DNA of 43,816 nt from Chloroflexi bacterium RBG_16_60_22 (GCA_001796935.1 MGNX01000108.1:1-43816); one strand, 5' to 3'. Positions 2,363 to 43,607 are shown, counted from the first letter of the stretch. Notes: generated from the letters alone by a model not told the origin. Program-made: numbers and translations.

Positions 2363-2405
2363 TGCCTTTACCTCCGATACTGATTAATTATTATCCCGGC
2401 GTGCT

Positions 2406-4466
2406 TCAGGTCAGCGTGACATAATTGCCATACTCATCGACCTGCATCCGGTATCCCGGCGGGATGACCACGTTGGTCATCCTCTCTTCGACCACGCACG
2501 GCCCTTCCAGGATATTGCCCGCCAGCATTTTGTCTCCGTCATAAATCCTGGTCTCCGTGTAGCCGCCGCTTTCATCGAAATAGGCGTCCCGGACACCCTT
2601 GAGCGCCTGCCCGGCGTCCCGGCTGCCCGTTTTAATCTTCTTCAGAGTGATGGGAGGCAGCTTGCCGATGGCCGTCAGGCCGAAGCCCATAATCTCCAGG
2701 GGGTATTTTTCATCGGCGTAGCCGTACAGGTCCTTGTGCTTGCGGTGGAAGGCCGCCAGCCCCTCGCTGATGGTTTCCATGGTAATCGTCCGGCTGGGCC
2801 ACTCCACGTCAATGCCGCGGTACTGGCCGTAATACTTCACCGTCATCATGCCCACCAGCTCGCGCTGCTCCTCCGGTATCTCCTCTTTGGACAGGACGGT
2901 CAGGCCCTCCCGCGCCATATCCTGGTAAAGCTGCTTGACCCGTTCCAGGTCCAGAGCCTGGACCGGCGCGCTGTAAAAGCGCGAGTAGTCATGCTTCAGG
3001 TTGACGCCGAGCATGCCGAAGGCGCAGTAAATGGGGGCGTACTTGGGGATAAACACCCGGTCGATGCATAGCTCCCGGGCTATCTGTACGGCGTGTACCG
3101 CCCCGGCGGCGCCGCCGATGCAGAGATAGAAGTCCCGGGGGTCCAGGCCCCGGCGGGTGATGGTATAGGATACCGTATTGGCCATGACCGAGTTGATAAC
3201 CTTGTAAACGGCGGCCGCCGCCTCCAGAACGCTGACGCCCAGGCGGTCGGCGACCCTTTCTTTCAGGGCTTTTTCGGCCAGGTTCCTTTGAAGCTTCATC
3301 TCGCCGCCGAGGAAGTAGTCCGGCGAGATGTAACCCAGGATGACATCGGCATCGGTTACCGTGGCCTCCTCGCCGCCGGTACCGTAACACGCCGGGCCGG
3401 GGTCGGCACCGGCGCTCCTGGGCCCCACCCGGAGGGTATTGGTAACATCGAACCAGGCGACGCTGCCCCCGCCGGCCCCGATGCTGGTGACGTCAATGAC
3501 CGGCAGGGAGAACCGGTGTTCTTCAATCAGGCTCTCGGTCTTAATGAGCGAGGTCCCTTTATCGATAATGCCCAGGTCGAGGCTGGTGCCGCCCATATCT
3601 ATCGATAGCAGGTTCTCCACCCCGTGCAGCTTCCCGATGGTGATGGCCGCGGAAGGCCCGGCGGCCGGTCCGGACATGGCCAGGGTGGCCGGTTTCTCCA
3701 TGGCGATTTCGGCCGTTTCCACGCCGCCGTTATTCTGGATATAGAGGAACTGCCCCTTGAAACCTTCCTGTTCCAGCAGGCCGGTTATTTTCTTGGTGTA
3801 CTTGTGGATGGCCGGGGCGATGAAAGCGTTGATGATAGCGGTGCTGGTCCTTTCGTATTCGCCCACGGCGGGCAGGACATCGGACGATATGGTGACATCG
3901 GCCTCGGGATATTCCTGCCGGACTATCTCGGCAGCCCTTCGCTCGTGCGAGGGGTACAGGAAGGAAAAGAGCAGCGCCACGATGATGCTTTCCACCTTGA
4001 GCTTTTTAAGATAAGCGACGGCCTTGCGGACGCTTGCCTCGTCCAGCGGCACCCGGACATTGCCCCGCGCGTCTATCCTCTCCCCGATTTCCACCCGCAG
4101 GTAGCGCGGCACCAGGACCTCGGGAAAATCGACCCGCCAGTCGTACATATTGTCTTTGGCCACGCGCCGGAACTGGATAACGTCACGGTGGCCCCTGGTG
4201 CAGAGCAGGCCCATCTTGGGGCCAACCCGGGTGGCGATGATATTCGTCCCGGTGGTGGTCCCGTGCACGATGGTGGAGACCTTGCTTAAAAATTGCCGGC
4301 GGTCCAGGTTATTCCGCCCGGCAAGAATATCAATCACGTTCATGGTGCCCACCGTCAGGTCACGCGGGGTGGTGGGTGCCTTACCCGTCTGGGTGAAACC
4401 TTTGTCATCCACGGCGATGGCATCGGTGAACGTCCCGCCGACATCAATACCTACTCGAAACGCCAT
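2406..4466 (-). CDS. hydantoinase A / oxoprolinase family protein (HyuA-like, ATP-binding subunit)
   Basis: 686-aa ORF. N-terminal MAFRVGIDVGGTFTDAI (ASKHA-type phosphate-1 motif of hydantoinase A) plus a second DMGGTS block. G-rich SD upstream of ATG 4466. Confidence 0.85.
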   Translation of the reverse strand: MAFRVGIDVGGTFTDAIAVDDKGFTQTGKAPTTPRDLTVGTMNVIDILAGRNNLDRRQFLSKVSTIVHGTTTGTNIIATRVGPKMGLLCTRGHRDVIQFRRVAKDNMYDWRVDFPEVLVPRYLRVEIGERIDARGNVRVPLDEASVRKAVAYLKKLKVESIIVALLFSFLYPSHERRAAEIVRQEYPEADVTISSDVLPAVGEYERTSTAIINAFIAPAIHKYTKKITGLLEQEGFKGQFLYIQNNGGVETAEIAMEKPATLAMSGPAAGPSAAITIGKLHGVENLLSIDMGGTSLDLGIIDKGTSLIKTESLIEEHRFSLPVIDVTSIGAGGGSVAWFDVTNTLRVGPRSAGADPGPACYGTGGEEATVTDADVILGYISPDYFLGGEMKLQRNLAEKALKERVADRLGVSVLEAAAAVYKVINSVMANTVSYTITRRGLDPRDFYLCIGGAAGAVHAVQIARELCIDRVFIPKYAPIYCAFGMLGVNLKHDYSRFYSAPVQALDLERVKQLYQDMAREGLTVLSKEEIPEEQRELVGMMTVKYYGQYRGIDVEWPSRTITMETISEGLAAFHRKHKDLYGYADEKYPLEIMGFGLTAIGKLPPITLKKIKTGSRDAGQALKGVRDAYFDESGGYTETRIYDGDKMLAGNILEGPCVVEERMTNVVIPPGYRMQVDEYGNYVTLT

Positions 4467-28902: not shown

Positions 28903-28932
28903 ATTATCCCTGCTGCCGCCAGGGCAAGTCAA
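28903..28932 (-). promoter_or_regulatory. candidate sigma70-type promoter for the nitroreductase gene
   Basis: Minus strand reads TTGACT (28932-28927), an 18-nt spacer, then GATAAT (28908-28903). Confidence 0.45.
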
Positions 28933-28934
28933 GT

Positions 28935-28964
28935 TTGCCAATGACGTTCGTTAGCGTGTAAAAT
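28935..28964 (+). promoter_or_regulatory. candidate sigma70-type promoter for the IorA-fusion/IorB genes
   Basis: TTGCCA (28935-28940), an 18-nt spacer, then TAAAAT (28959-28964). Sits back-to-back with the nitroreductase promoter. Confidence 0.5.
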
Positions 28965-29064
28965 AAAAATGAAAGTCAGCTTCCCGCCATCGTTAGAGAG
29001 ACCGTCCGCCGCGTTACCTGTAAATCAATCGCCTTCAGGGTGGCGTGACGTCAGGAGGAGCGTA

Positions 29065-32000
29065 TTGAGCAAAGTCGCTGAAATAACGATTACCTCCGAT
29101 GCCCCCGGCGCCCGACTCTTCATGCTGGGCAATGAGGCCATCGCCCGGGGGGCCATCGAGGCCGGTGTCCAGGTGGTGGCTTCCTACCCCGGCACGCCTT
29201 CCAGTGAAATCACCGAGGCCCTGGTGGGCATGGCCGACAGGATGGGCTTCTACGCCGAGTGGTCGGTAAACGAGAAGGTGGCCATGGAGGTGGCCATGGC
29301 CGCTTCTATCTCCGGGCTGAAGTCCCTGGCGATAATGAAGCACGTGGGCGTCAACGTGGCCCACGACCCGTTGATGTCGGCCAGCTACATGGGTGCCCGC
29401 GGAGGCCTGGTGCTGATTTCCGCCGACGACCCCGGCCAGTGGAGCTCCCAGAATGAGCAGGACAACCGCTACATCGCCCGGCAGGCCTATATACCGGTGC
29501 TGGAGCCGTCCTCCGCCCAGGAGGCCAAGGACATGATGGCCAACGCCTTCCGCCTCTCCGAGGAGTTCAACCAGATGTTCATGTTGCGCTCGGTGACCCG
29601 CCTGGGCCACGGCCGCAGCGATATCGTTTTCGGGGAGATTGAGCGGGAGAAACGGGCGGGGAAGTTCGTCAAGGACCCCGGCCGGCTCGTCTGCCTGCCG
29701 GCGAATTTCCGCAACAACCGCCGCCTGGTGGTGGCGCGGATGGAAAAAATCCGGCAGGCGGTGGATGCCTGGCCCTATAACCGCCTGACGCTGAAGAAAA
29801 ACGCGAAGCTGGGCATCATCGCCACCGGCATTGCTTACGGCTACGCCATCGAGGCTGTCCAGTGGCTCGGGCTCGAGGACAAGGTATCGGTGCTGAAGGT
29901 CGGCACACCGTACCCGCTGCCCGCGGAGCTGACGAAGCAGATGCTTAAGGCGGTGCCGGAGGTCCTGGTGGTGGAGGAGCTGGAGCCCTTCGTGGAGGAA
30001 GCCGTCAAGGTAGTCGCCAAGGACGCCGGCCTCACCACGAAAGTCCACGGCAAGGATATGCTGTCAGTGGTCGGGGAGCTTTCCACCCGGCAGGTCTCCG
30101 AGGCGCTTTCAAAGCTGACCGGGGCCTTGCCGCCGGTGGACTTCGCTATGCTGGACAGGATAAAGGCGGAGACGCAGTCCCTGCTGCCCCTGCGTCCCCC
30201 CACCATGTGCGCCGGGTGTCCCCACCGGGCCACCGCCTATGCTATCAACATCGCCTGCCGGCGCTACCAGCAGGAGACCGGCCGGGAGCCGGTCAAGACG
30301 GGTGACATCGGCTGCTACGCCCTGGCGGCTAACCCGCCGCTCAACTCGGACGACGTCGCCGTCTGCATGGGTGGCGCTTTCGGGCTGGCCAACGGCTTTG
30401 CCCACGTGGTGGATGCCCCGGTGGTGGCCCATCTCGGCGACTCCACCTTTTTCCACTCCGGCATCCCCCCGATGATTAACGCCGTTTACAACAAGTCCCG
30501 GGTGACGATGGTGGTGATGGATAACGCCACCACCGGCATGACCGGATTTCAGCCCCACCCCGGCGCCTCGGGGGATGTCTCCGTGGACATCAAGATTGAG
30601 GACATCGCCCGGGCCAGCGGCGTGAAGTTCGTCGAGGTGGTGGACTCCTTCGACCTGCCGAAGCTTATCGAGACGCTGGATAAAGCCCTGAGGTTCGACG
30701 GGCCTTCGGTCATCGTCGCCCGCCGGCTTTGCGGTATCCTGGACCAGCGGGAGAAGCGGAAGCAGGGCGTTAAGACTGTCCCCTGGGAGGTAGAGGAAGA
30801 GAAATGCCTGGCCGGCGCTCCGCCGTACTGCCAGGCCACCTGCCCCCTGCACATCGATATCCGCGGCTATACCCGCCTGATTAAGGAGGGCAAATTCAAC
30901 GAGGCGCTGGCCATCATCAAGCAGACTTTGCCCTTCCCCGCCATCATCGGGCGCATCTGCACCCGCCCCTGCGAGGCCAGGTGCCAGCGGGCGGAGGTGG
31001 AGGAGGCCATCGCCATCAATGCCCTCAAGCGGGCGGCGTCCGACTTCGGTAAATATAAAGAAGGCTACTCCGTCAAGGCGGAGAAGAAGGAAAAAGTAGC
31101 CATCGTGGGCGGCGGTCCGGCCGGCATCATGGCCGCCTACGATTTGCGCAAGGCCGGCTATAAAGTGACCATCTTCGAAGCCCTCCCCAGGCTGGGTGGC
31201 ATGATGGCGGTGGGCATACCCGAGTTCCGCCTCCCCCGGGACATCCTGGACAAAGAGACGGCCATCATCAAGAAGCTGGGCGTGGAGATAAAGCTGAATA
31301 CCAGGGTGGGGAAGGACGTCAAAATGTCCGACCTCAAGAAAGACTACCACGCCGTGTTCATCGCCGTGGGCGCCCATAGAGGCCGGAACCTCGGCATCGA
31401 GAACGAGAAAGCCCCGGGCGTCATCGACGGCACCGAGTTCCTCCTCAAGGTGAACACCGGCCAGAAGGTAGCCGTACCGGACAGGGTGGCGGTGGTGGGG
31501 GGCGGCAACGTGGCCATCGACTGCGCCCGGACCGGCGTGCGGCTGGGCTGCCCTGATGTCACCATCGTTTACCGGCGCTCCCGGGCGGAGATGCCGGCCA
31601 TCGCCGAGGAGATAGCCGGGGCCGAGAGCGAGGGCGTGAAAATAAGGCTGCTGGCCGGCCCGAACAAGGTTGTTCTTAAAGGTAACAAAGTGTCCGGGCT
31701 GGAGTGTATCAAGATGAAGCTGGGCGAGCCGGACAAGAGCGGGCGGCGCCGCCCGGTGCCGGTAGCCGGCTCGGAGTTCACCGTGGCGGCCGACCTGATA
31801 ATCGCCGCCGTCGGCGAAGAGCCGGACCTGGCTTTGATGACCGGGGACATGACCAAAGCGGTCAAGGACGGACTGGTCAAGGCCGACCCCCTGACGCTGG
31901 AGACCGGCATCCCCGGCGTGTTCGCCGGCGGCGACGCCGTGACCGGACCGGCCACGGTCATCCAGGCGATGGCGGCGGGACGGAAAGCGGCCGTGTCCAT

Positions 32001-32388
32001 CGACCGTTTCCTCAAGGGCGAGCAACTGGACACCGGCCGGGAAGGGGAGGCCGTCTTCGAGAGCAAGCTTATCGTCGATACGTTCGGCATTACCCCGGAG
32101 TCCCGGCTGGACATGCCCCTGCTGCCGGTGGCGCAGCGGCGCGGCAACTTCCGGGAGGTGGAGCTGGGGTTAAGCCAGGAGGAAGCGGTGCGGGAGGCAA
32201 AGCGCTGCCTTTCCTGCGACTGCCATATCTGCATCGATTTGACGGGCTGTCCCGCCCTGATTACGGAGGACGACAGGGTAAAGATAGACCAGGAGAGCTG
32301 TCCCGGCTGCGGGGTCTGCGCCCAGGTCTGCCCGCACGACGCAATCTTTTTACCGGGAGCGAAAGATGGCCGCGACGAAAGAGCTTAA
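29065..32388 (+). CDS. fusion protein: indolepyruvate/2-oxoacid:ferredoxin oxidoreductase alpha (IorA-like, TPP) + GltD-like FAD/NAD(P)H oxidoreductase module + C-terminal 2x[4Fe-4S] domain
   Basis: The track ORF is trimmed to TTG 29065, where AGGAGG lies 6 nt upstream; the ATG at 28969 lies 5 nt after the predicted -10. Result is 1107 aa. The IorA-like N-terminus is MLGNEAIARGAIEAGVQVVASYPGTPSSEI. The TPP block is GDIGCY...GDSTFFHSG. The GltD-like module (about 30790-32020) contains CLAGAPPYCQATCPLHIDIRGY...GRICTRPCEARC, VAIVGGGPAGIMAAYDL, VAVVGGGNVAIDCA and GVFAGGDAV. It ends with CLSCDCHICIDLTGCP...CPGCGVCAQVCP. Confidence 0.8.
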   Translation: MSKVAEITITSDAPGARLFMLGNEAIARGAIEAGVQVVASYPGTPSSEITEALVGMADRMGFYAEWSVNEKVAMEVAMAASISGLKSLAIMKHVGVNVAHDPLMSASYMGARGGLVLISADDPGQWSSQNEQDNRYIARQAYIPVLEPSSAQEAKDMMANAFRLSEEFNQMFMLRSVTRLGHGRSDIVFGEIEREKRAGKFVKDPGRLVCLPANFRNNRRLVVARMEKIRQAVDAWPYNRLTLKKNAKLGIIATGIAYGYAIEAVQWLGLEDKVSVLKVGTPYPLPAELTKQMLKAVPEVLVVEELEPFVEEAVKVVAKDAGLTTKVHGKDMLSVVGELSTRQVSEALSKLTGALPPVDFAMLDRIKAETQSLLPLRPPTMCAGCPHRATAYAINIACRRYQQETGREPVKTGDIGCYALAANPPLNSDDVAVCMGGAFGLANGFAHVVDAPVVAHLGDSTFFHSGIPPMINAVYNKSRVTMVVMDNATTGMTGFQPHPGASGDVSVDIKIEDIARASGVKFVEVVDSFDLPKLIETLDKALRFDGPSVIVARRLCGILDQREKRKQGVKTVPWEVEEEKCLAGAPPYCQATCPLHIDIRGYTRLIKEGKFNEALAIIKQTLPFPAIIGRICTRPCEARCQRAEVEEAIAINALKRAASDFGKYKEGYSVKAEKKEKVAIVGGGPAGIMAAYDLRKAGYKVTIFEALPRLGGMMAVGIPEFRLPRDILDKETAIIKKLGVEIKLNTRVGKDVKMSDLKKDYHAVFIAVGAHRGRNLGIENEKAPGVIDGTEFLLKVNTGQKVAVPDRVAVVGGGNVAIDCARTGVRLGCPDVTIVYRRSRAEMPAIAEEIAGAESEGVKIRLLAGPNKVVLKGNKVSGLECIKMKLGEPDKSGRRRPVPVAGSEFTVAADLIIAAVGEEPDLALMTGDMTKAVKDGLVKADPLTLETGIPGVFAGGDAVTGPATVIQAMAAGRKAAVSIDRFLKGEQLDTGREGEAVFESKLIVDTFGITPESRLDMPLLPVAQRRGNFREVELGLSQEEAVREAKRCLSCDCHICIDLTGCPALITEDDRVKIDQESCPGCGVCAQVCPHDAIFLPGAKDGRDERA

Positions 32389-33001
32389 CATAATAATAGG
32401 CGGGGTCGGGGGTCAGGGCGTGGTACTGATGTCCGAGCTGCTCGGCAACGCCGCCGTCCGGAGTGGTATTCAGGTGAGGGGCTCCGAGGTCCTGGGGATG
32501 GCGCAGCGGGGAGGCTCCGTTTTCAGCAATATCCGCCTGGGACACGGTGTGGCCTCGGCGCTGACGCCGGAAGGCAGGTGCGATGTCCTCATCGCCGTGG
32601 AGCCGTCGGAGGCACTCCGTAATATTCAGTACCTGGGGAAGTCCAGCGTGGTGGTAGTCAACACCCGGACGGTATTGCCCTTTACCGTGTTCCTGGGCAA
32701 GAGCGGCTATCCCACCCTGAAGCAGATACTGGCCGGACTAAAAAAAGTTACCGACCGTGTTATCACGGTGGACGCCGCCGGGCTGGCCGAGAAGGCCGGC
32801 AGCCTGCAATCGATGAACGTGGTCATGCTGGGGGCTTTATACGGGACCGGCCTGGTGCCGGTGGACACCGATACCGCCAGGGAGGTCATCCGGGGGCGCT
32901 TTCCGGCCCGGGCGGCCGACACCAACCTCAAGGCTTTCGAGCTGGGCTATAAGGAAGTCCTGAAGGCGCTGCAAAAGACGGCGGCCGGTCGCGACTCCTG
33001 A
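32366..33001 (+). CDS. iorB: indolepyruvate/2-oxoacid oxidoreductase beta subunit (IorB-like)
   Basis: 211-aa ORF with NIIIGGVGGQGVVLMSELLGNAA...GSEVLGMAQRGGSV, typical of IorB/POR-gamma domains. Overlaps the fusion gene by 23 nt. SD GGGAG lies 6 nt upstream. Confidence 0.85.
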   Translation: MAATKELNIIIGGVGGQGVVLMSELLGNAAVRSGIQVRGSEVLGMAQRGGSVFSNIRLGHGVASALTPEGRCDVLIAVEPSEALRNIQYLGKSSVVVVNTRTVLPFTVFLGKSGYPTLKQILAGLKKVTDRVITVDAAGLAEKAGSLQSMNVVMLGALYGTGLVPVDTDTAREVIRGRFPARAADTNLKAFELGYKEVLKALQKTAAGRDS

Positions 33002-33009
33002 GGAACGGT

Positions 33010-34407
33010 CTAGGCCACCATCAGCCTGACGATGCGGCTGACGTCGTCAATGTCTTCCAGGTCCTGGAGCATCTCCAGCAATCTGGCGGCATTTTTACGC
33101 GAGACCGTCTGCGAGAAGTCCACCTGGTGCCAGAACTTGTCCGTGACCTGCTTCAGGGGAGCGGGCTTTTGGGTCCAGTCGCGGTTGAGCAAGCCTGACT
33201 CGGTGAACTCCCGCCCGTCCTTCATCTTTACCTGGAGGGTGATGGCCCAGCGTTCCGAGGCGCTGGCTGGCTCAATCATCTTCGTCCTGGCGGTCAGCTC
33301 GCTGGCTCGGGGGTCGAGGATGGCTTCCTCGGTAAAGTTGGGCAGCCCCACGCTCTTCCTGAGCAGGGCGGTGGCCACGGTATAGGGGTAGCTGAAAATG
33401 GCGTCCCCGTGGGGGAACTCCCGGATAACGAACGGCTTGGCGTAGTAGCTGCGCTGGAGGGTTCCCGGGGGCACGGTGAGGATAACCTCGGCGATGTCGT
33501 CGGTGCTGATATCGTGTTTGCGGACGAGCTCCAGGGCGCAGTTGATGGCGATGTGGTTGGGCATGCCGCAGGGGTAGGGCTTGAAATAGGCCTCGCCGTA
33601 GTATTTCTTCCCCAGGTCACGGGTGAGGATGGACGGGTCCTTGCAGCCCTTGGCGTAGAGGAAAAAGTAGCCGAACCGACTCTGCAAGGCGTCTTCCACC
33701 CCCGTCCACCCTCTGGCGGCCAGCTCGGCGGCGAAGATGCCGTGGCGGGCGGCCGTGCCCTGGCCGAGCTTGAAGGTGGTAGCCCCGTCCCAGATGCTCT
33801 GGATGGCGGCGGCTATCAGGTTGAGCACGATGCCGAAGGCGTGCCGCATCCGGTGCGCGTCCAGCTTGAGCAGCCGGCCCGCCGTGGCCGCGGCCCCGAG
33901 GTGGCTCAGCGTGCCGCAGCCGTCCCAGCCCAGCCCGATGGGGTGCTCGGCGGAGGCGGCCTGGACCCTGGCGGCAACGTCATCGCCCACCAGCATCGCG
34001 GTCAGCAGCTCCCTGCCGCTGACTTTTTGCGCCTCGCCCAGCGCCAGGGCGGTGGGCACCAGCGTGGCGGCGTGGTGGGAAGGAAACACCTGGCCGTCGA
34101 TAACGTAGGACATCACCTCGAAATCGTAAGAGCGGGCCATGATGGCGTTGAGCATGGCCACGTTCTGGGCGGGCGCCTTGCCGCCGCGGACGAAGATGGT
34201 GGACTCGGTTTTGCCGCCCCATTCCCGGAGGAGGTCGAGCAGGGCGGCGTTGCCGGGGGCATCGGCTCCGCCGATGACACAGCCGAGGACGTCGATGATG
34301 CGCTTTTTGGCCAGGTCCAGCGTGTCGTCGTCGAAGTCCTCAAAGCGCGTCTCGACGACGTTTTCCGATATGGCCTCGATGGCGGTCTTGCCTTCAGTAT
34401 CGCTCAT
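33010..34407 (-). CDS. MmgE/PrpD-family protein, paralogue b
   Basis: 465-aa ORF. PrpD-like N-terminus (ISENVVETRFEDFDDDTLDLAKKRIIDVLGCVIGG) and the FKPYPCG block. The ATG is 1 nt after the upstream paralogue's TAA. Confidence 0.85.
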   Translation of the reverse strand: MSDTEGKTAIEAISENVVETRFEDFDDDTLDLAKKRIIDVLGCVIGGADAPGNAALLDLLREWGGKTESTIFVRGGKAPAQNVAMLNAIMARSYDFEVMSYVIDGQVFPSHHAATLVPTALALGEAQKVSGRELLTAMLVGDDVAARVQAASAEHPIGLGWDGCGTLSHLGAAATAGRLLKLDAHRMRHAFGIVLNLIAAAIQSIWDGATTFKLGQGTAARHGIFAAELAARGWTGVEDALQSRFGYFFLYAKGCKDPSILTRDLGKKYYGEAYFKPYPCGMPNHIAINCALELVRKHDISTDDIAEVILTVPPGTLQRSYYAKPFVIREFPHGDAIFSYPYTVATALLRKSVGLPNFTEEAILDPRASELTARTKMIEPASASERWAITLQVKMKDGREFTESGLLNRDWTQKPAPLKQVTDKFWHQVDFSQTVSRKNAARLLEMLQDLEDIDDVSRIVRLMVA

Positions 34408-34408
34408 T

Positions 34409-35788
34409 TTACAGCGTAATCTCCCGGATAAGCTCCGGGACGCTCGCTTTCTCCAGGTTGAGGAGTATCTCCACTGCCCCGTTTATTTTATCGATGGTCA
34501 GCGCCCGCTGGGCGTTGTGGCGGAACTTGGCCACCAGCTCGTCTACGGTCAGGGGGGACTCGGTGGAGCCGTGGGGCATCTTCCGGTCTTCCTTGAAGGT
34601 CTTGCCTTTGGCCCTGACCTCCAGAGTGGTGAGCTGGGGCTCCGTCTCCGTTTGAGGATGGACTATCACGCTGACTTTTTTAGCAAACGACTGGATTTCC
34701 GGCGAGCGCAGGGTGTCCATGTCCTGCCACTCCACGCCCGGCCGGATGCCGTGGGCGACCACCGCCAGGACGTAGGGCAGCCCGAACTGGAAATCGACGG
34801 TGTTGGTCAGCTCCCGGTTCTGGAAGAGGGGGGCCTCGACGGTGCGGGGGAGATAGCCCTTGACGCTCTGGATGTCCTCCGGCCCGAGGTTGTTCTGCTT
34901 CATGATGTTTTGCAGAATCTCGAGGGCGGGGTGGAGCACCCGGCAGCAGGGGTAGGGCTTATAGTTAACCCGGGTGACGAAGAGCCAGCTCTTGCCGAGG
35001 TCGGTGGTGACGTTCTCCGGGCTCCAGCTGCCGTAGCCGGCGAACTTCCAGAAGCCCTTGTCCGGGGGGTCGAAGACGGTGGTATCGCCCATGTAACCCA
35101 TCTCTGCCCAGAGCGCCGCCATGATGCCGCCGGTGTTCTGCCACCCCGGCACGCCGTACTTGGTCATGGGGCGGTGCTCGCTGAAGGAAGAGCGCACCCA
35201 GGTCAGCACCTGGCTCAGGTGGGCGGCGAGGCCCAGCGCGTGGGTCATTTTACCTTTATCGAGCTTGAGGAGCCGTCCCGCGCCGGCGGCTACCCCGAGG
35301 TTGCAGTTGGCGTAGCCCGTCCGCTCCGGCCAGCGGAAGGGTTTGGTGCCTATCGGCGAGGCGTCCAGCATGCCGCTCAAGACCCTGGCCCCGACCTCGA
35401 AGCCGAGCGCCGTGGCCAGTATCAGGTCCTTGCCGGAGGCCCCGGTACTCTCCGCCACGGCCAGCACGGAGGGGACGATGTAGGCCGGGGCGTGGCCGCC
35501 CGGCATGAGGGCGTCAAAGTCCGGGGTGTTGACCAGCTGGGCGTTGGCGAAGGCGGCGCTGGTGCAGGAGACCTTGTCCCCCAGGCCGATGATGGAAGAT
35601 TCCGGCGGCCCGCCGAGACGTTTGGCCAGGGCGACGGCCATCTTACCCGGGTCGAGGGTCAGCCCGGCCAGCGCATTGCCGATGGAGTCCATCAGCAGCA
35701 GCCTGGACTCGCGCACCACGGGCTCGGGTAAGTCGGCGTACTTCGTTTTAACGGAAAATCCGGCCAGTTCCTCGGTGATATTGCTCAT
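34409..35788 (-). CDS. MmgE/PrpD-family protein, paralogue a
   Basis: 459-aa ORF with ELAGFSVKTKYADLPEPVVRESRLLLMDSIGNALAG and YKPYPCC blocks. SD GGGAGGGG lies 8 nt upstream. Confidence 0.85.
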   Translation of the reverse strand: MSNITEELAGFSVKTKYADLPEPVVRESRLLLMDSIGNALAGLTLDPGKMAVALAKRLGGPPESSIIGLGDKVSCTSAAFANAQLVNTPDFDALMPGGHAPAYIVPSVLAVAESTGASGKDLILATALGFEVGARVLSGMLDASPIGTKPFRWPERTGYANCNLGVAAGAGRLLKLDKGKMTHALGLAAHLSQVLTWVRSSFSEHRPMTKYGVPGWQNTGGIMAALWAEMGYMGDTTVFDPPDKGFWKFAGYGSWSPENVTTDLGKSWLFVTRVNYKPYPCCRVLHPALEILQNIMKQNNLGPEDIQSVKGYLPRTVEAPLFQNRELTNTVDFQFGLPYVLAVVAHGIRPGVEWQDMDTLRSPEIQSFAKKVSVIVHPQTETEPQLTTLEVRAKGKTFKEDRKMPHGSTESPLTVDELVAKFRHNAQRALTIDKINGAVEILLNLEKASVPELIREITL

Positions 35789-35810: not shown

Positions 35811-37217
35811 TTACTTGATTTTCGGCAGGTTCACGCCCTGCTTCCCCAGGTTCTCCCGCAGGGCTGTATAGTCCACTTTTCTCGGCTGGATGCCGTCCCT
35901 GGCCGCCATGGCCGCCGCCGTGCCGGCCGCCTGGCCGTAGGCGATGCAGTGCGGGATGATGTTGAAGGTCTCGTTGACGGTATCGGCGGAGGAGAAGGCG
36001 CGGCCGGCCACCAGCAGGCCGTCCACCCGCTTCGGCACCAGGCAGCGGTAGGGGATGCAGAGGGCGGGGTGGTTCGAGGAAATCTCCCCGAAGTCGTTAT
36101 TGGCCAGCACGGCGATGGTATCCGGGAAGACCTCGTCCGTTTCCAGGTCCTTCTCGCTGAGGGTGTACTCCCCGACGATGCGCCGGCCCCCCTGGGTGCC
36201 CAGCTGGGGTGCGGTGAGCATGATGTAGGCATTCTCGAAACCGGGGACATGCTTCTTCATGAAGTCGTAGGTGACGAGGGCGCGCTTGCGGGACTTGATG
36301 TCTATCCGGGTCAGCTGCTCCACGTCCATGGCGTCGGTGCGCTCCGGCTGGGGCTGCATGCAGTGGTACCAGAGGACTCCGGGCTGGTTGCGGAGGATGC
36401 CCTTGAAGAAGTTGGGGTAGCCGCCGAGCCTGGACAGCTCCTGCAAAAGCTCGCCCCATTTATCCGGCTGGGACGCCCGGAAGTGGTCGAGCTTCCTGAT
36501 ATCGACGTTGGCCATCCAGAAGACCAGGGCCAGCCAGGCGGTGCGGCGCTTGTTATCGCAGTCGTTATCCATCTCCGCCCCGGCGGAGACGAAGATATCG
36601 CCATCGCCGGTGGCATCGATGATAACCTTGCCGAGGATGGCCTGCCGCCCGGACTTGCTCTCGAAGTAGACGCCCCGGACGGTGTTCCCGTCGGTTATCG
36701 TGCGGGTACCCCAGGAGTGCAGCAGCAAATCGACCCCCGCCTCCAGCACCATGTCGTTGAGCTCGTCCTTGAGTATCTCGGGGTCGACGACGGCCGTGTA
36801 GTGCACCCGCTGCTTATCGGTCTTGTAGTCGTGGCGGACATGGAACCACCCGAGGTTGGCGTCCAGGTAGTAATCGACCACCTTCCTGTCGGTGGTGCCC
36901 CAGTCCTCCTTCTTCGGGTAGGAAGTGCCGCCCCTCCGGTCCAGCCGGTCGATGAGCTCCTGGTTGAGGCCGTAGAGGTGCTGCTTCCCGTAGATATCGC
37001 TGAGGTTGGGGATGATGTTGACCAGCCCCCCGGTGGCCATGCCGCCGAGGTGGCCGTAGCGCTCGATGAGGACGGTTTTCGCCCCGCTACGCGCCGCGGC
37101 AATCGCCGAGCCGATGCCGCCGGGACCGCCGCCCACCACCACCACGTCCGCCTCCCGGCAGACCTTGATTTCCCGGGCGGGTTCCGTAATCGTTCTGACT
37201 GAAGGTCGCTTTGCCAT
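35811..37217 (-). CDS. FAD-dependent oxidoreductase (GIDA-like/FAD_oxidored-type), paralogue 2
   Basis: The track ORF is trimmed to MAKRPSV, where GGAGG lies 6 nt upstream of ATG 37217. Result is 468 aa. Has the dinucleotide motif VVVVGGGPGGIGSAIAAARSG...IERYGHLGGMATGG and IDATGDGD. Confidence 0.8.
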   Translation of the reverse strand: MAKRPSVRTITEPAREIKVCREADVVVVGGGPGGIGSAIAAARSGAKTVLIERYGHLGGMATGGLVNIIPNLSDIYGKQHLYGLNQELIDRLDRRGGTSYPKKEDWGTTDRKVVDYYLDANLGWFHVRHDYKTDKQRVHYTAVVDPEILKDELNDMVLEAGVDLLLHSWGTRTITDGNTVRGVYFESKSGRQAILGKVIIDATGDGDIFVSAGAEMDNDCDNKRRTAWLALVFWMANVDIRKLDHFRASQPDKWGELLQELSRLGGYPNFFKGILRNQPGVLWYHCMQPQPERTDAMDVEQLTRIDIKSRKRALVTYDFMKKHVPGFENAYIMLTAPQLGTQGGRRIVGEYTLSEKDLETDEVFPDTIAVLANNDFGEISSNHPALCIPYRCLVPKRVDGLLVAGRAFSSADTVNETFNIIPHCIAYGQAAGTAAAMAARDGIQPRKVDYTALRENLGKQGVNLPKIK

Positions 37218-37298
37218 GGGTAACCTCCATCGCAAGACTAATTACTGCCCCCTGTTGGTGCCCAGGGCGGCGGTTAGGTGCTGGCCGCTATTAGTCTA

Positions 37299-38666
37299 TT
37301 ACCGTACGCCCGCCCTGACATCCGGCAGGGGGACGCCCTGCTTGATGAGCCGGGCGCGCAGGTCGGCGAAGTTCACCTTCTTGGGGCTGACGCCGGCCTG
37401 AAGGGCCAGGGCCGAGGCCGTGCCGGCCGCCTCGCCGAAGGCGATGCAGTGCGGGATGAGGTTGAAAAACTCCTGGACGTGCTCGTCCGACGAGAAGGCG
37501 CGGCAGGCCACCAGCAGGTTGTCCACGTTCCTGGGCTGGAGGCAGCGGAAGGGTATGAACATGTTGGGGTGGTCCACCGATTCCTGACCGCGGTCGAGGT
37601 CCGGGAAGATGGCGATGGTGTCCTCGAACGGCTCGTTGTTGGCCATGTCCGCCTTGGTCAGCTTGTATTCGCCAATCAGGCGCCGACTGCTCCGCGTGCC
37701 CAGCTGCGGGGCGGTCAGGACGATGAAGCTCTTCTCGAAGCCGGGGAAATTTTTCTTCCAGAAGTCATAGGTCTTCAGCATCTTCTTACGTCCCTCGAAC
37801 TCGATGCGGGTCAGCTCTTCGACATCCACCTGGCTCTTGTTCGGGTAGCGGTTGTGAATCCAGACGACGCTCTCCTGGTTATTGAGGCAGCTCTTGAGAT
37901 AGCCGGGGAACCCCCCGAGTTTCAGGCATTCGCGCTGCATGGCGGCAAAAGCATCAGGTTGATTATTCTTGAAGTCCTCGGCTCTGCGGAGGTCGACACC
38001 GGCAATCCAGAAGCACAGTGCCAGGTTGGCAATCCTGAAATTGGCGGGGATATTGTCCTCGAACTCGATACCGGCATAGGGGAGGAGGTCGCCATCGCCG
38101 GTAGCGTCGATGACAACCTTGCCCAGCACCGCCTGCCGGCCCGACTTGCTCTCGAAGATGACGCCCCGACACTCGTTGCCTTCCATGATGGGCTCGGTGC
38201 CCCAGGAGTGCAGGTAGGTCTTGACGCCGGCCTCTTGAACCATGTCATTGAGGACGCATTTGGAAATTTCGGCGTCGATGACGGCGCTGTAGCAGACCCT
38301 GTCCTGGCGTATGTAAAAGAAAATCCGGTTGAAATAGTATTTAACGAGTTCCTTATCGGTAACGCCCCATTCTTCTTTTTTAGGGGCGGCCACGGCATCC
38401 CTGACGCGGAGCCTCTCTATCCATTCCTCGCAGATGCCGGCAATCTGCTGCTTGCCGTTGATATCACTCATATTGGGAATAATAGTAACCAGGCCTCCCG
38501 TGCCCATGCCGCCCAGGACACCGTACCTTTCGATGAGCACCGTGCTGGCGCCGTTCCTGGCGGCGGATACCGCCGCCCCGATTCCCCCGGGACCGCCCCC
38601 CACCACCACGACGTCGGCCTCGCAGGCTACTCTGGTATCTCGGGTCGCTTCCTTAATCGTCTTCAT
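37299..38666 (-). CDS. FAD-dependent oxidoreductase (GIDA-like/FAD_oxidored-type), paralogue 1
   Basis: 455-aa ORF with VVVVGGGPGGIGAAVSAARNG...IERYGVLGGMGTGG and IDATGDGD. SD AAGGAGGT lies 6 nt upstream. Confidence 0.8.
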   Translation of the reverse strand: MKTIKEATRDTRVACEADVVVVGGGPGGIGAAVSAARNGASTVLIERYGVLGGMGTGGLVTIIPNMSDINGKQQIAGICEEWIERLRVRDAVAAPKKEEWGVTDKELVKYYFNRIFFYIRQDRVCYSAVIDAEISKCVLNDMVQEAGVKTYLHSWGTEPIMEGNECRGVIFESKSGRQAVLGKVVIDATGDGDLLPYAGIEFEDNIPANFRIANLALCFWIAGVDLRRAEDFKNNQPDAFAAMQRECLKLGGFPGYLKSCLNNQESVVWIHNRYPNKSQVDVEELTRIEFEGRKKMLKTYDFWKKNFPGFEKSFIVLTAPQLGTRSSRRLIGEYKLTKADMANNEPFEDTIAIFPDLDRGQESVDHPNMFIPFRCLQPRNVDNLLVACRAFSSDEHVQEFFNLIPHCIAFGEAAGTASALALQAGVSPKKVNFADLRARLIKQGVPLPDVRAGVR

Positions 38667-42428: not shown

Positions 42429-43475
42429 TTACCGGTACTGCGTCGTCCCCCGGATGAGGTCCACCAGCATTTTCACCAGCCTCACCAGCAGGCTGATGCC
42501 GATGCCCACGGCGATAAGTATCAGGACCACCGTCACGCCCACGTTGGTGGCGGCGGCGGCCGCCGCGCCGGGTATCACGCTGAAGTCGAAGGGGAAAATC
42601 GTCAACAGGCTCAGCACCGTCGCCAGCCCGAAGATGTCGATGATGAAGAGCACCATTTTCCGCAGCAGGTAACGGTCATGGATGATGATAACGACGTGGC
42701 CGGCGATGGATATCGCCAGGGTCGTGTTCAATATCGGCAGCCACTGGGCGATTTCCCGGGTAAAAAAGGTGTACCGCGTCCAGGTGACGATACTGCCCGC
42801 CGTGCTGGCGTTGTAGTAAGCGACGTATTCGTAGAAGAAATTGAAAAAGATGAGCAGGGCAATGCTCCAGGCGATGGCAAACGCCGAGGCCGTTACCCTC
42901 CCGGCATGCTTCCTCTCGAAGAACTCCTCCACCTTACGGCTGATTTTCTCGTCGATGTCCTCCCCGGCGGCGGGGGGCGTTTCCTTCTTTTGGGGAGGGG
43001 CCGCCGACCGCGGCGACTCCGGCGGCCGGCGGTAACCGGTGGTGGCCACGGTGACACCGGCCATCCTCTCGGCGATATCACCCGCCCAGGCCAGCTTGAA
43101 ACGCTCGCCGTTGTAGGCCTTGACCATGAGGACTATCCACAGGATAAAGCCGGTGATGCCGATGATGACGGAGAAGACGGTGCCGATGACGGGTATCCAC
43201 CCCAGGATGATACTGGCCACGGCCAGGGTGCCGAAGGTGACGATGGACTGCGCGGCGTGGAAGCGTATCCAGCCGTTTTTCTGCTCCAGGACAAAGATGA
43301 TGATGCCGCTCACCCAGGCACCCAGGTAGCACAGCCACCCGGCAACGTTCGGCGCGAGGTTCAGCGTGGTCTCCTGGGACATCTGCTGCTTTTCCTGTTC
43401 TATCTGCTGCCGCGCCTCAATCCTGGCCTTCTCTTCTTCGTAGATTCTTCGTCTTTCCTCCGGTGAAAGCTCCAT
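42429..43475 (-). CDS. integral membrane protein (charged N-terminal helix, DUF4870-like TM module, Pro-rich linker, second TM module)
   Basis: The track ORF is trimmed to MELSPEERRRIYEEEK, where GGAGG lies 8 nt upstream of ATG 43475. Result is 348 aa with multiple hydrophobic spans. The family call is by eye only. Confidence 0.7.
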   Translation of the reverse strand: MELSPEERRRIYEEEKARIEARQQIEQEKQQMSQETTLNLAPNVAGWLCYLGAWVSGIIIFVLEQKNGWIRFHAAQSIVTFGTLAVASIILGWIPVIGTVFSVIIGITGFILWIVLMVKAYNGERFKLAWAGDIAERMAGVTVATTGYRRPPESPRSAAPPQKKETPPAAGEDIDEKISRKVEEFFERKHAGRVTASAFAIAWSIALLIFFNFFYEYVAYYNASTAGSIVTWTRYTFFTREIAQWLPILNTTLAISIAGHVVIIIHDRYLLRKMVLFIIDIFGLATVLSLLTIFPFDFSVIPGAAAAAATNVGVTVVLILIAVGIGISLLVRLVKMLVDLIRGTTQYR

Positions 43476-43607
43476 GGCAAACACCTCCGTTACCAGACTT
43501 TAAGCCCCCTTTGAGATGGCGTAGGCGGTATATCCGGCAAACCTCAGTATTCCGGCCTGATTATACACCCGGGCGGGGCGCCGGTAAACATACGGCGAAG
43601 GACGGCC

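Follow-up and report, generated by a model that had tools for sequence, protein, structure and literature searches.

The 43,816-nucleotide window analyzed here, from Chloroflexi bacterium RBG_16_60_22, carries a gene (29065..32388, +) whose 1107-aa product combines an IorA body, an NADPH flavoprotein module, and an IorA-type ferredoxin domain in a single chain. As judged from comparisons of its sequence, this fusion is a genuine, conserved form of anaerobic 2-oxoacid oxidoreductase. Together with the adjacent iorB, the fused gene probably encodes a two-subunit arylpyruvate/2-oxoacid:NADP+ oxidoreductase (CoA-acylating) in which the electron exit would be hard-wired to NADP+. We found no publication on a fused IorA-flavoprotein enzyme.

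A Pfam scan of the fused open reading frame returned the domains in the order POR_N, TPP_enzyme_C, Fer4_20, Pyr_redox_2, and Fer4. The NCBIfam model TIGR03336 (IOR_alpha) matched with 730.1 bits (cut-off, 650.9), and the match was split: model positions 2 to 565 fell on 29113-30846, while positions 542 to 595 fell on 32176-32346. The two parts are separated by a gap of about 1.3 kb, and the ferredoxin domain is not contiguous with the TPP domain. These scans bear out the three-part order proposed in the initial annotation (IorA body, NfnB/GltD-type module, IorA ferredoxin domain), and every motif quoted there was present in the sequence. KCLAGAPPYCQATCP was located at 30802-30846, GRICTRPCEARC at 30949-30984, VAIVGGGPAG at 31096-31125, VAVVGGGNVAIDCAR at 31486-31530, and AGGDAV at 31924-31941; the ferredoxin core motif spans 32206-32334. 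The IorA body (residues 1 to 572; 29065..30780, +) comprises the POR_N pyrimidine-binding domain, a middle domain, and the TPP-binding domain and corresponds to TIGR03336 positions 2 to 565. It contains the TPP motif GDSTFFHSG-x19-DN (residues 458 to 487; 30436-30525), and the ligands of a predicted TPP-proximal [4Fe-4S] cluster (C382, C385, C417, and C556) are invariant across 71 homologues. The IorA body and the canonical IorA of the same genome are 41% identical over residues 19 to 559, where homology ends.

The fused gene is covered by a single open frame (28969..32388, +) in the ORF listing of the window. A Shine-Dalgarno sequence (AGGAGG, 29052-29057) precedes a TTG start codon (29065-29067) by 7 nt (29052..29067, +), and in an alignment the start residue of the fused protein matches the equivalent residue in its orthologues. 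A promoter-like site further upstream (TTGCCA-18-TAAAAT; 28935..28964, +), which is a consensus match only, agrees with 10 of 12 consensus positions; two sites were found, compared to 0.5 expected from shuffles. Its divergent partner, assigned to the nitroreductase gene, lies at 28932-28903 and is likewise a consensus match only. Since the promoter-like site would leave no room for it, the upstream ATG (28969) is disfavored; the site and the AGGAGG-TTG arrangement therefore point to a fused product of 1107 aa. The uninterrupted 1107-aa frame described previously thus holds, from the TTG at 29065 to the stop at 32388. The next gene, iorB (211 aa; 32366..33001, +), has a 23-nt overlap with the fused gene and scored 210 bits with TIGR03334 (cut-off, 205.8), so that both the profile match and the coordinates agree with the normal IorB noted initially at this position. 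Eight of nine other fused loci, from several phyla (L007-L010, L012, L014, L016, and L018), likewise have iorB after the fused gene; it was not detected in the fused locus L015.

The flavin module begins with an N-terminal Fe-S domain (Fer4_20, PF14691; 30769..31050, +) recognized by Pfam. The predicted ligands of its proximal cluster, C593, C632, C636, and K655, align with C108, C147, C151, and K170 of Csac NfnA, which form a Lys-type proximal cluster, and K655 is invariant in the homologues of the fused protein. In Csac NfnA, the Lys is a ligand of the FAD-proximal cluster, and in NfnABC the FAD of NfnA is a nonbifurcating NADPH port that feeds the Fe-S chain (PMC11829005). For the distal cluster, mapped with the NfnB cluster ligand list given in PMC7596348, only three Cys ligands instead of four are predicted (C581, C589, and C640); G584 occupies the position of the fourth distal-cluster Cys of NfnB (Cys42). 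The FAD- and NADP(H)-binding domains (Pyr_redox_2; 31093..31980, +), delimited by Pfam, motifs, and model superposition, contain on the same strand the FAD motif GGGPAG (31108-31125), the NADP Rossmann motif GGGNVAIDCAR (31498-31530), the 2′-phosphate motif Y836-R837-R838 (YRR; 31570-31578), and GGDAV (31927-31941). YRR marks a preference for NADP(H) (PMC7596348), and each of its residues is kept in at least 90% of the 71 homologues. The module scored 415.6 bits against the NfnL-like domain of T. sibiricus NfnA (9n5u), 408.8 bits against Csac NfnA (9bov), and 330.3 bits against T. maritima NfnB (4ylf), and the AlphaFold2 (AF2) model superposes on NfnL (5jca_L, root mean square deviation of 2.4 Å; 4ylf_B, TM score of 0.82). 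The complete glutamate-synthase-small-subunit-like module noted initially is hence substantiated as NfnB/GltD type by Pfam, profile scores, and fold match. YRR, together with the NfnL-type Cys3-Lys ligation of the proximal cluster, narrows the predicted pyridine nucleotide to NADP(H).

Comparison with stand-alone tails delimited a linker (residues 985 to 1024) and a lead-in, NFREVELGLSQEEAVREAKR (residues 1028 to 1047), which together occupy 32017..32205 (+). Both are of the type found C-terminal to the flavin domains in stand-alone PRK12771/DsrL-like proteins, and NF009410 scored above its cut-off in one continuous match (residues 594 to 1126 in 1139-aa numbering). Linker and lead-in were modeled by AF2 with a pLDDT of 74 to 94 and showed pN/pS values of 0.26 and 0.17, respectively. 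The ferredoxin core that follows (2x[4Fe-4S], GCPAL signature; 32206..32346, +) contains eight invariant Cys residues (1048, 1051, 1056, 1062, 1079, 1082, 1085, and 1089). It scored 45.5 bits with IOR_alpha positions 542 to 595, compared to at most 25.5 bits for other ferredoxin domains in the genome. An HMM of canonical IorA tails gave 40 to 67 bits on the fused cores (20 of 21 at 52 to 67; 59.1 for the core in the window), and an HMM of stand-alone flavoprotein tails gave 34 to 48 bits (44.7 for the core in the window). The assignment of the C terminus as the usual IorA ferredoxin domain is upheld by this discrimination and by the IOR_alpha score. Because linker and lead-in are DsrL/PRK12771-like, we infer that two ferredoxin-bearing proteins, IorA and a DsrL/PRK12771-like Fe-S flavoprotein, recombined at their homologous ferredoxin domains, rather than that a bare GltD was inserted, and equivalent fusions would have arisen several times.

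As expected from family membership, the IorA body and IorB would bind an arylpyruvate-like 2-oxoacid and CoA, and TPP chemistry would release CO2 and yield the acyl-CoA. The two electrons would leave singly via the TPP-proximal [4Fe-4S] cluster (C382/C385/C417/C556), cross both clusters of the IorA-type ferredoxin domain, and then cross both Fer4_20 clusters, the last of which would be Cys3-Lys coordinated; FAD would gather both electrons and deliver a hydride to NADP+. The predicted cofactor Cys ligands (4+6+8) are invariant in 71 fused homologues, down to 36% identity; the cluster order and the catalysis are what we infer. The net reaction, R-CO-COO- + CoA + NADP+ -> R-CO-SCoA + CO2 + NADPH, would be downhill and effectively irreversible without the need for free ferredoxin. 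Electrons would probably pass straight to NADP+ and not to free ferredoxin, and the self-contained 2-oxoacid:NAD(P)+ oxidoreductase suggested by the initial annotation is the best-supported mechanism, narrowed to NADP(H) by YRR and Cys3-Lys. The following points count against an NADP+ exit. Anaerobes usually conserve energy via ferredoxin, and the transfer of -500 mV electrons to NADP+ wastes it; the electron wire may be altered at the three-Cys distal cluster; and the ferredoxin domain could still be solvent exposed and serve free ferredoxin.

One alternative is a dual-exit enzyme, in which free ferredoxin would remain a physiological acceptor at the IorA ferredoxin domain and the flavin module would be a built-in ferredoxin:NADP+ reductase, allowing the cell to divide electrons over the ferredoxin pool and the NADPH pool or to equilibrate both without substrate. 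The IorA-type ferredoxin core has been kept intact rather than lost, and DsrL-like relatives dock on their partner via the C-terminal ferredoxin domain and a flexible linker (PMC7596348). Here, however, the linker is predicted to be ordered, the alternative domain order IorA-Fd-flavin (P0257, L016) puts the ferredoxin domain buried between both bodies, and no ferredoxin gene linked to the locus was found in the window, which makes this arrangement unlikely. Flavin-based bifurcation or confurcation is decidedly improbable. FAD would then couple NADP(H) to the Fer4_20 clusters and the ferredoxin domain, such that NADPH and a second donor drive the reductive carboxylation of acyl-CoA or that ferredoxin and NADP+ are both reduced. 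Homology of the module to NfnB/NfnL, which in NfnSL holds the bifurcating FAD, speaks for this reading, as do the four clusters flanking the flavin in sequence; however, a Lys is the predicted fourth ligand of the proximal cluster, as in Bfu-type NfnA, in which bifurcation does not take place at this FAD, and NfnSL has a Glu at the position equivalent to K655. In addition, the window contains no gene for an NfnA/NfnS-like high-potential partner subunit ([2Fe-2S] plus FAD). Some methanogens use IOR reductively, and in the window the fused gene comes after an amino-acid-type ABC transporter, as might suit a biosynthetic 2-oxoacid synthase that runs in reverse and uses NADPH to carboxylate arylacetyl-CoA or a branched acyl-CoA for amino acids. 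Nevertheless, NADPH (about -320 mV) cannot drive a couple of about -500 mV without extra energy, and the transporter linkage is not conserved, so that we give this proposal very little credence.

With canonical IorAB (Pyrococcus furiosus type, TIGR03336/TIGR03334), the predicted NADP+-reducing enzyme shares two subunits, the PYR/TPP domains, the TPP motif, the four-Cys proximal cluster, and the C-terminal IorA-type 2x[4Fe-4S] core, both HMMs scoring above their cut-offs. It differs by about 470 residues (Fe-S, FAD, and NADP domains, linker, and lead-in) between the TPP domain and the ferredoxin core, by a chain of 1107 aa instead of an alpha subunit of about 600 aa, and by its predicted acceptor, NADP+ instead of free ferredoxin. 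By sequence and by fold, the flavin module comes closest to the NfnL-like domain of NfnA in Bfu-type NfnABC/StnC (9n5u, 9bov, 8oh5), and the two agree in the YRR NADP(H) site and in the Cys3-Lys coordination of the proximal cluster. There, however, the module is part of a formate-dehydrogenase-like subunit within a bifurcating NuoEF-type complex, whereas here it is joined to a TPP enzyme, with neither a Bfu B nor a Bfu C subunit linked to the fused gene. Residues ~570 to 1097 resemble DsrL/PRK12771 in their succession of N-terminal 2x[4Fe-4S], FAD/NAD(P), linker, and C-terminal 2x[4Fe-4S] and follow the same YRR logic for NADP(H) as DsrL, an NAD(P)H:acceptor oxidoreductase of dissimilatory sulfur metabolism; the study that defined this domain order leaves out, by its criterion 3, homologues linked to OFOR genes (PMC7596348). 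DsrL is a separate protein serving DsrAB, whereas the present module is fused to IorA and ends in an IorA-type ferredoxin core.

The phenylglyoxylate enzyme, put forward initially as a precedent, turned out to be an analogue only. In PadEFGHI of Azoarcus evansii/Aromatoleum, an OFOR core reduces pyridine nucleotide via an added flavoprotein (Hirsch et al. 1998, as cited in PMC5109826). This functional analogue consists of five separate PFOR/VOR-type subunits and uses NAD+, not NADP+; its small subunit PadF is a ferredoxin, whereas PadH is the flavoprotein. NF045765, the HMM for PadH, had no match at E <= 1e-3 on the fused ORF or its contig (C108); because of the missing match on the fused ORF, PadH is considered not to be a GltD-type module and is placed in another flavoprotein family. 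Pyruvate:NADP+ oxidoreductase (PNO) consists of PFOR and a C-terminal cytochrome-P450-reductase-type FMN/FAD module, which is appended rather than inserted. No flavodoxin/FNR (CPR-type) Pfam domains as in PNO were found in the fused ORF. The existence of PNO in Euglena and Cryptosporidium, as an OFOR in one chain with an NADP+-reducing flavoprotein, is cited in PMC6856725.

Tabulating the neighborhoods of four orthologous Dehalococcoidales loci, as had been proposed, revealed that only iorB and two genes, convergent with iorB, for PF12831 FAD-dependent oxidoreductases (35811..38666, -; Pfam) travel with the fused gene, besides a DUF4870 gene (42429-43484). The PF12831 pair occupies the same relative position in L007-L010 (70 to 79% identity), and the DUF4870 gene is kept in the three Dehalococcoidales loci that extend far enough. 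Conservation beside the fused gene in these four loci does not include the Liv transporter, nitroreductase, PrpD pair, Mo enzymes, or hydantoinase. The suggested tie to this island, by way of an aryl- or ring-cleavage-derived 2-oxoacid or a diketone, is consequently not backed by synteny, which is uninformative with regard to substrate identity, and there is no solved IOR structure from which the binding pocket could be read. The genome keeps a separate canonical IorAB, adjoining an aminotransferase gene, to which the fused IorA and its separate IorB are 41% and 39% identical. G6PD, PntB, and RnfD were not seen in the genome, which is only 82% complete. The separate IorAB and these absences lend circumstantial support to an NADP+ exit.

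That two genes were joined by a missed stop or frameshift can practically be dismissed: the public collection records a 977-aa product (P0001) for this very window, but the same unbroken frame recurs in more than 100 protein clusters and in independent MAGs of several phyla, as the proposed database search for the domain order established, and pN/pS is 0.28 at junction 1 (IorA body/flavin module) and, as given above, 0.26 in the linker, with junction residues conserved in the alignment of homologues. The best 120 clusters share the domains, and 96 of them are 1090 to 1110 aa long, most of the shorter ones lying on short contigs. Values of pN/pS from 0.15 to 0.43 in every segment, including the junctions, indicate purifying selection throughout, and the single-chain AF2 model of the fused protein reached a pLDDT of 90.8 and a pTM of 0.72. 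The IorA tree distributes the fused forms over at least six supported groups and the flavin tree over at least three; the trees show at least three to six apparently independent fusions across phyla. Two domain orders occur among them, and one fused form has IorB joined in the same chain as well. This recurrent fusion, in two domain orders and with an IorB-fused form, therefore argues for a direct functional coupling of the 2-oxoacid oxidoreductase and the flavoprotein.

The open reading frame of the fused gene extended without interruption over 28969..32388 on the plus strand. A promoter-like site at 28935-28964 would leave no space for use of the ATG at 28969, whereas a TTG at 29065 lies 7 nt downstream of an AGGAGG sequence and coincides with the residue at which the aligned orthologues begin; the product was therefore taken to comprise 1,107 aa. 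This promoter-like site forms part of a back-to-back pair (28903-28964) for the fused gene (+) and a nitroreductase gene (-), each matching 10 of 12 consensus positions, with overlapping -35 regions. The window's own product is present in the public collection as a 977-aa protein (P0001) from a 36,675-bp contig; this entry is 130 residues shorter than the present frame and probably represents a truncated or otherwise started gene call. Pfam domains were found in the order POR_N, TPP_enzyme_C, Fer4_20, Pyr_redox_2, and Fer4. The frame scored above the NCBIfam cut-offs for both the indolepyruvate oxidoreductase (IOR) alpha subunit (TIGR03336; 730 bits, cut-off 651) and NF009410/PRK12771 (528 bits, cut-off 516). 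In a six-frame search of the genome, the IorA model was broken in two, with positions 2-565 matching 29113-30846 and positions 542-595 matching 32176-32346. The protein thus passes the IOR cut-offs but departs from the contiguous architecture of the family. These data confirmed the one-frame, three-part arrangement of IorA, flavin, and ferredoxin regions proposed in the initial annotation, and every motif quoted there was recovered at its given position. The normal iorB expected downstream was likewise identified (32366..33001; TIGR03334, 210 bits, cut-off 205.8), overlapping the fused gene by 23 nt.

To examine the reality of this frame, a collection of 5.8 billion proteins was searched, with clusters defined at the 90% identity level. 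The best 120 clusters, mostly from Dehalococcoidales/Chloroflexota metagenome-assembled genomes (MAGs) and annotated plainly as "IorA," had the same domains and were 68 to 84% identical across the junction-spanning query region. Proteins of 1,090 to 1,110 aa made up 96 of these clusters, while the shorter ones derived mostly from short contigs. An exhaustive search yielded about 35 representatives at 50% identity with both halves on one chain. When the junction-spanning query was run against 150 other sampled genomes, essentially the flavin part alone was matched (query start at ≥54, once at 30), and this search hence gives no count of fusions. Crude pN/pS ratios, computed against four orthologous Dehalococcoidales loci, were 0.19 for the IorA body, 0.28 for the border between IorA body and flavin module, 0.15 for Fer4_20, 0.19 for the FAD/NADP domains, 0.26 for the linker, 0.17 for the lead-in, and 0.43 for the ferredoxin core. 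Across 71 aligned fused proteins, with identities as low as 36%, all predicted Fe-S cysteine ligands were invariant (C382/C385/C417/C556, C581/C589/C593/C632/C636/C640, and eight in the ferredoxin core); K655 and Y836-R837-R838 were each conserved in at least 90%. AlphaFold2 modeling from this alignment gave a mean pLDDT of 90.8 and a pTM of 0.72. With pLDDT values of 74 to 94, the linker (residues 985-1035) is predicted to form an ordered strap rather than a flexible tether. The comparative evidence for a genuine fused frame is strong.

The closest solved relatives of the flavin module were the NfnL-like domains of NfnA from Bfu-type NfnABC complexes (9n5u, 415.6 bits; 9bov, 408.8 bits), followed by Thermotoga maritima NfnB (4ylf, 330.3 bits) and StnC (8oh5, 327.8 bits). 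The modeled module superposed on NfnL with an rmsd of 2.4 Å; a fold search with the model re-found the flavin module alone and did not address domain docking. In NfnA of C. saccharolyticus, the FAD-proximal cluster A7 is held by Cys108, Cys147, Cys151, and Lys170, and electrons pass from NADPH via FAD and A7 to A6 (PMC11829005). These ligands correspond to C593, C632, C636, and K655 in our alignment, whereas NfnB of the NfnSL type, whose FAD is bifurcating, carries a Glu at the position of K655. The distal cluster of the module has only three cysteines, as G584 replaces Cys42 of NfnB. A YRR motif, which grips the 2′-phosphate of NADPH in NfnB and marks the NADP(H)-preferring DsrL-2 (PMC7596348), is present as Y836-R837-R838. 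With all features combined, the module resembles an NADP(H) port that does not bifurcate electrons. Six Fer4_20 modules were detected in the 1.87-Mb genome, in frames of 538 to 1,147 aa; the five besides the fused gene (contigs C12, C6, C36, C106, and C1) are GltD/NfnB-like and lie in frames of 538 to 907 aa. Judged from these predicted frames, the module is promiscuous, and the organism joins an NAD(P)H port to many partners.

The terminal ferredoxin domain had been described as that of a usual IorA. An end-to-end fusion in which the IorA ferredoxin domain was lost had to be considered, because NF009410 matches continuously from the flavin module through the C-terminal ferredoxin domain and stand-alone relatives of 546 to 566 aa could be aligned through to the C-terminal end. 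Therefore, 21 fused cores were scored with two hidden Markov models (HMMs), one derived from the tails of 27 canonical IorA proteins and the other from those of 8 stand-alone flavoproteins. The IorA-tail HMM gave 40 to 67 bits for the fused cores (52 to 67 for 20 of the 21; 59.1 for the window), compared to 51 to 74 bits for the canonical tails scored on their own HMM. With the stand-alone-tail HMM, the fused cores reached 34 to 48 bits, like canonical IorA tails. This test ruled out the end-to-end scenario for the core. A GCPA[ILF] signature was also seen by eye in the fused cores, and the C terminus of the IorA model scored 45.5 bits on the fused domain, compared to at most 25.5 bits on other ferredoxin domains of the genome. 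The original assignment was thus upheld for the core. The linker and the lead-in NFREVELGLSQEEAVREAKR-C of the fused protein, by contrast, correspond in type to the segments found after the flavin domains of stand-alone PRK12771/DsrL-like proteins, and the end-to-end scenario was retained for these two parts. A "Y-x-V-D-x-E-K-C" motif at the border of IorA body and flavin module was tried as proof of a break within the IorA ferredoxin motif and dropped, since the non-IorA flavin proteins P0329 and P0165 are similar there. DsrL comprises an N-terminal ferredoxin, FAD/NAD(P) domains, a linker, and a C-terminal ferredoxin domain (PMC7596348), which is exactly the order of the flavin-to-ferredoxin part of the fused protein. 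The simplest history would be a recombination of IorA with a DsrL-like flavoprotein within homologous ferredoxin domains.

The fused family was found in MAGs of Dehalococcoidia, Desulfobacterota-type bacteria, Myxococcota, and Gemmatimonadota. Full fusions were present, among others, in four Dehalococcoidales loci (L007-L010), a Deltaproteobacteria MAG (L012), Myxococcota (L014), Longimicrobiales (L016), and two further MAGs (L015 and L018). In the 1,005-aa protein P0257 and in the Longimicrobiales locus L016 (8001-10961), the order was IorA-ferredoxin-flavin, with the second ferredoxin motif directly joining the Fer4_20 motif. In P0243, IorB was fused at the C terminus as well, giving a single chain of 1,384 aa. 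In the maximum-likelihood tree built for the IorA half (from 34 fused and 52 canonical sequences), the fused label had to change 11 times, and well-supported branches forced at least 6 of these changes; the flavin-half tree required 7, at least 3 of them forced. These forced changes in both half-trees indicate a repeated origin of the fusion. The clade comprising the window protein, P0002, P0096, P0120, and P0232 was present in both trees. On the IorA side, its closest unfused relative was an ordinary Dehalococcoidia IorA (P0242; loci L013 and L033, about 60% identical); on the flavin side, P0317 and P0344 were closest, both non-IorA flavoproteins carrying an Fe-S domain of the NuoF type.

A single chain thus brings together a complete, conserved ligand set for five [4Fe-4S] clusters with FAD and NADP(H) sites. 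From family membership, the IorA body and IorB would catalyze the TPP/CoA-dependent oxidative decarboxylation of an arylpyruvate-like 2-oxoacid. Electrons would flow from TPP via the proximal cluster, the ferredoxin-domain clusters, and the Fer4_20 clusters to FAD and NADP+. Direct coupling of ferredoxin domain and flavin module is supported by two independent architectures, the IorA-ferredoxin-flavin order and the IorB-fused chain. The family represents a real IOR variant, widespread and uncharacterized, and we consider it reasonably probable that it acts as a 2-oxoacid:NADP+ oxidoreductase. Whole-genome searches, at 82% genome completeness, gave no match for glucose-6-phosphate dehydrogenase (G6PD_N), PntB (PNTB), or RnfD (RnfD/NqrB), the customary systems for NADPH generation and for coupling ferredoxin to NAD+; given this completeness, their absence is circumstantial evidence, fitting a role in NADPH supply or in ferredoxin-independent electron disposal. 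Alternatively, the protein could be a new energy-coupling type of 2-oxoacid:ferredoxin oxidoreductase (OFOR), in which FAD placed between two [4Fe-4S] pairs gates or bifurcates electrons, so that NADP+ and ferredoxin are reduced together, or which works as a reversible, NADPH-assisted 2-oxoacid synthase. The repeated fusion in strict anaerobes hints at a selective advantage beyond the saving of one diffusible carrier; we regard this alternative as improbable.

The initial annotation had tied the enzyme to the aryl or ring-cleavage chemistry of its surroundings. By its predicted genes, the window is a catabolic island, encoding hydantoinase A/B (407-4466), a 3-hydroxyacyl-CoA dehydrogenase, a molybdopterin oxidoreductase with its own Fe-S subunit, three pyrogallol-transhydroxylase-like Mo subunits with one Fe-S partner, TRAP and Liv transporters, an SDR, a nitroreductase, two PrpD-like proteins, and two PF12831 FAD oxidoreductases. 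However, iorB and the convergent PF12831 genes are the sole neighbors that stay beside the fused gene in the four orthologous loci, joined by a DUF4870 gene in those three that extend far enough to show it. The two PrpD/MmgE-like genes (33010-35788) are a window-specific insertion between iorB and the PF12831 pair, as no such genes occupy this position in L007-L010. Upstream genes vary among the orthologous loci (housekeeping or Zn-ADH), and in distant phyla, where iorB still follows the fused gene, the other neighbors are unrelated save for recurrent hydantoinase A/B. Thus, the tie to the island is unproven, and neighboring genes allowed no conclusion on the substrate. Hydantoinase/oxoprolinase genes adjoin fused IorA in two distant MAGs, as HydA alone at a contig end (L015:5272-7317) and as A plus B (L018:9383-13209); in the window, they lie 25 kb from the fused gene. 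This pairing may reflect a recurrent functional association. In L009 (16798-18759), an E1 alpha gene of a 2-oxoacid dehydrogenase, followed by a 317-aa ORF, lies just past the DUF4870 gene, placing a second 2-oxoacid-oxidizing system close to the fused IOR. The genome also encodes a canonical IorAB pair (contig C76:7259-9040; locus L001, 1486-4780), with an IorA of 606 aa from the first ATG and an IorB of 201 aa, which are 41% and 39% identical to their fused-locus counterparts. The fused enzyme is therefore an extra paralogue and not a replacement. With a class I/II aminotransferase-like gene directly downstream, the canonical pair looks like an ordinary ferredoxin-linked aromatic amino acid route.

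Literature searches on the fusion or on IOR in these organisms yielded no description of an IorA-NfnB/GltD fusion, which is also absent from a November 2026 PFOR review. The flavin part is an NfnL/DsrL-type module, but the protein differs from DsrL in being joined to an OFOR. Homologues with OFOR linkage were excluded by the authors of the DsrL study (PMC7596348), so the association had been noticed, though not studied. The phenylglyoxylate:NAD+ oxidoreductase PadEFGHI, previously invoked as a precedent, is analogous and not homologous: it stands as a functional analogue, but the module type is not the same, since the PadH flavoprotein HMM (416 positions; the PadF ferredoxin HMM has 78) had no match in the fused ORF. 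A PadH-like flavoprotein is encoded elsewhere in the genome (contig C19:338-1552; NF045765, 302 bits, below the 475-bit cut-off). Pyruvate:NADP+ oxidoreductase (PNO) is likewise analogous, with another kind of flavoprotein attached at the C terminus.

OFORs are textbook ferredoxin-dependent enzymes, and few forms linked to pyridine nucleotides are known (PNO of protists and PadEFGHI of denitrifiers). The fusion constitutes a natural experiment in which a flavoprotein was spliced into an Fe-S wire, independently repeated and in two topologies. If the proposed function is correct, it would offer biocatalysis a compact NADPH-regenerating decarboxylase encoded by two genes, or by one in some relatives. 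Direct coupling of 2-oxoacid oxidation to NADPH formation would then be common among uncultured subsurface anaerobes whose proteins are listed in databases plainly as "IorA," and metabolic reconstructions would have to be revised as to how NADPH is supplied and ferredoxin is budgeted in organisms from which the oxidative pentose phosphate pathway, transhydrogenase, and Rnf appear to be missing.
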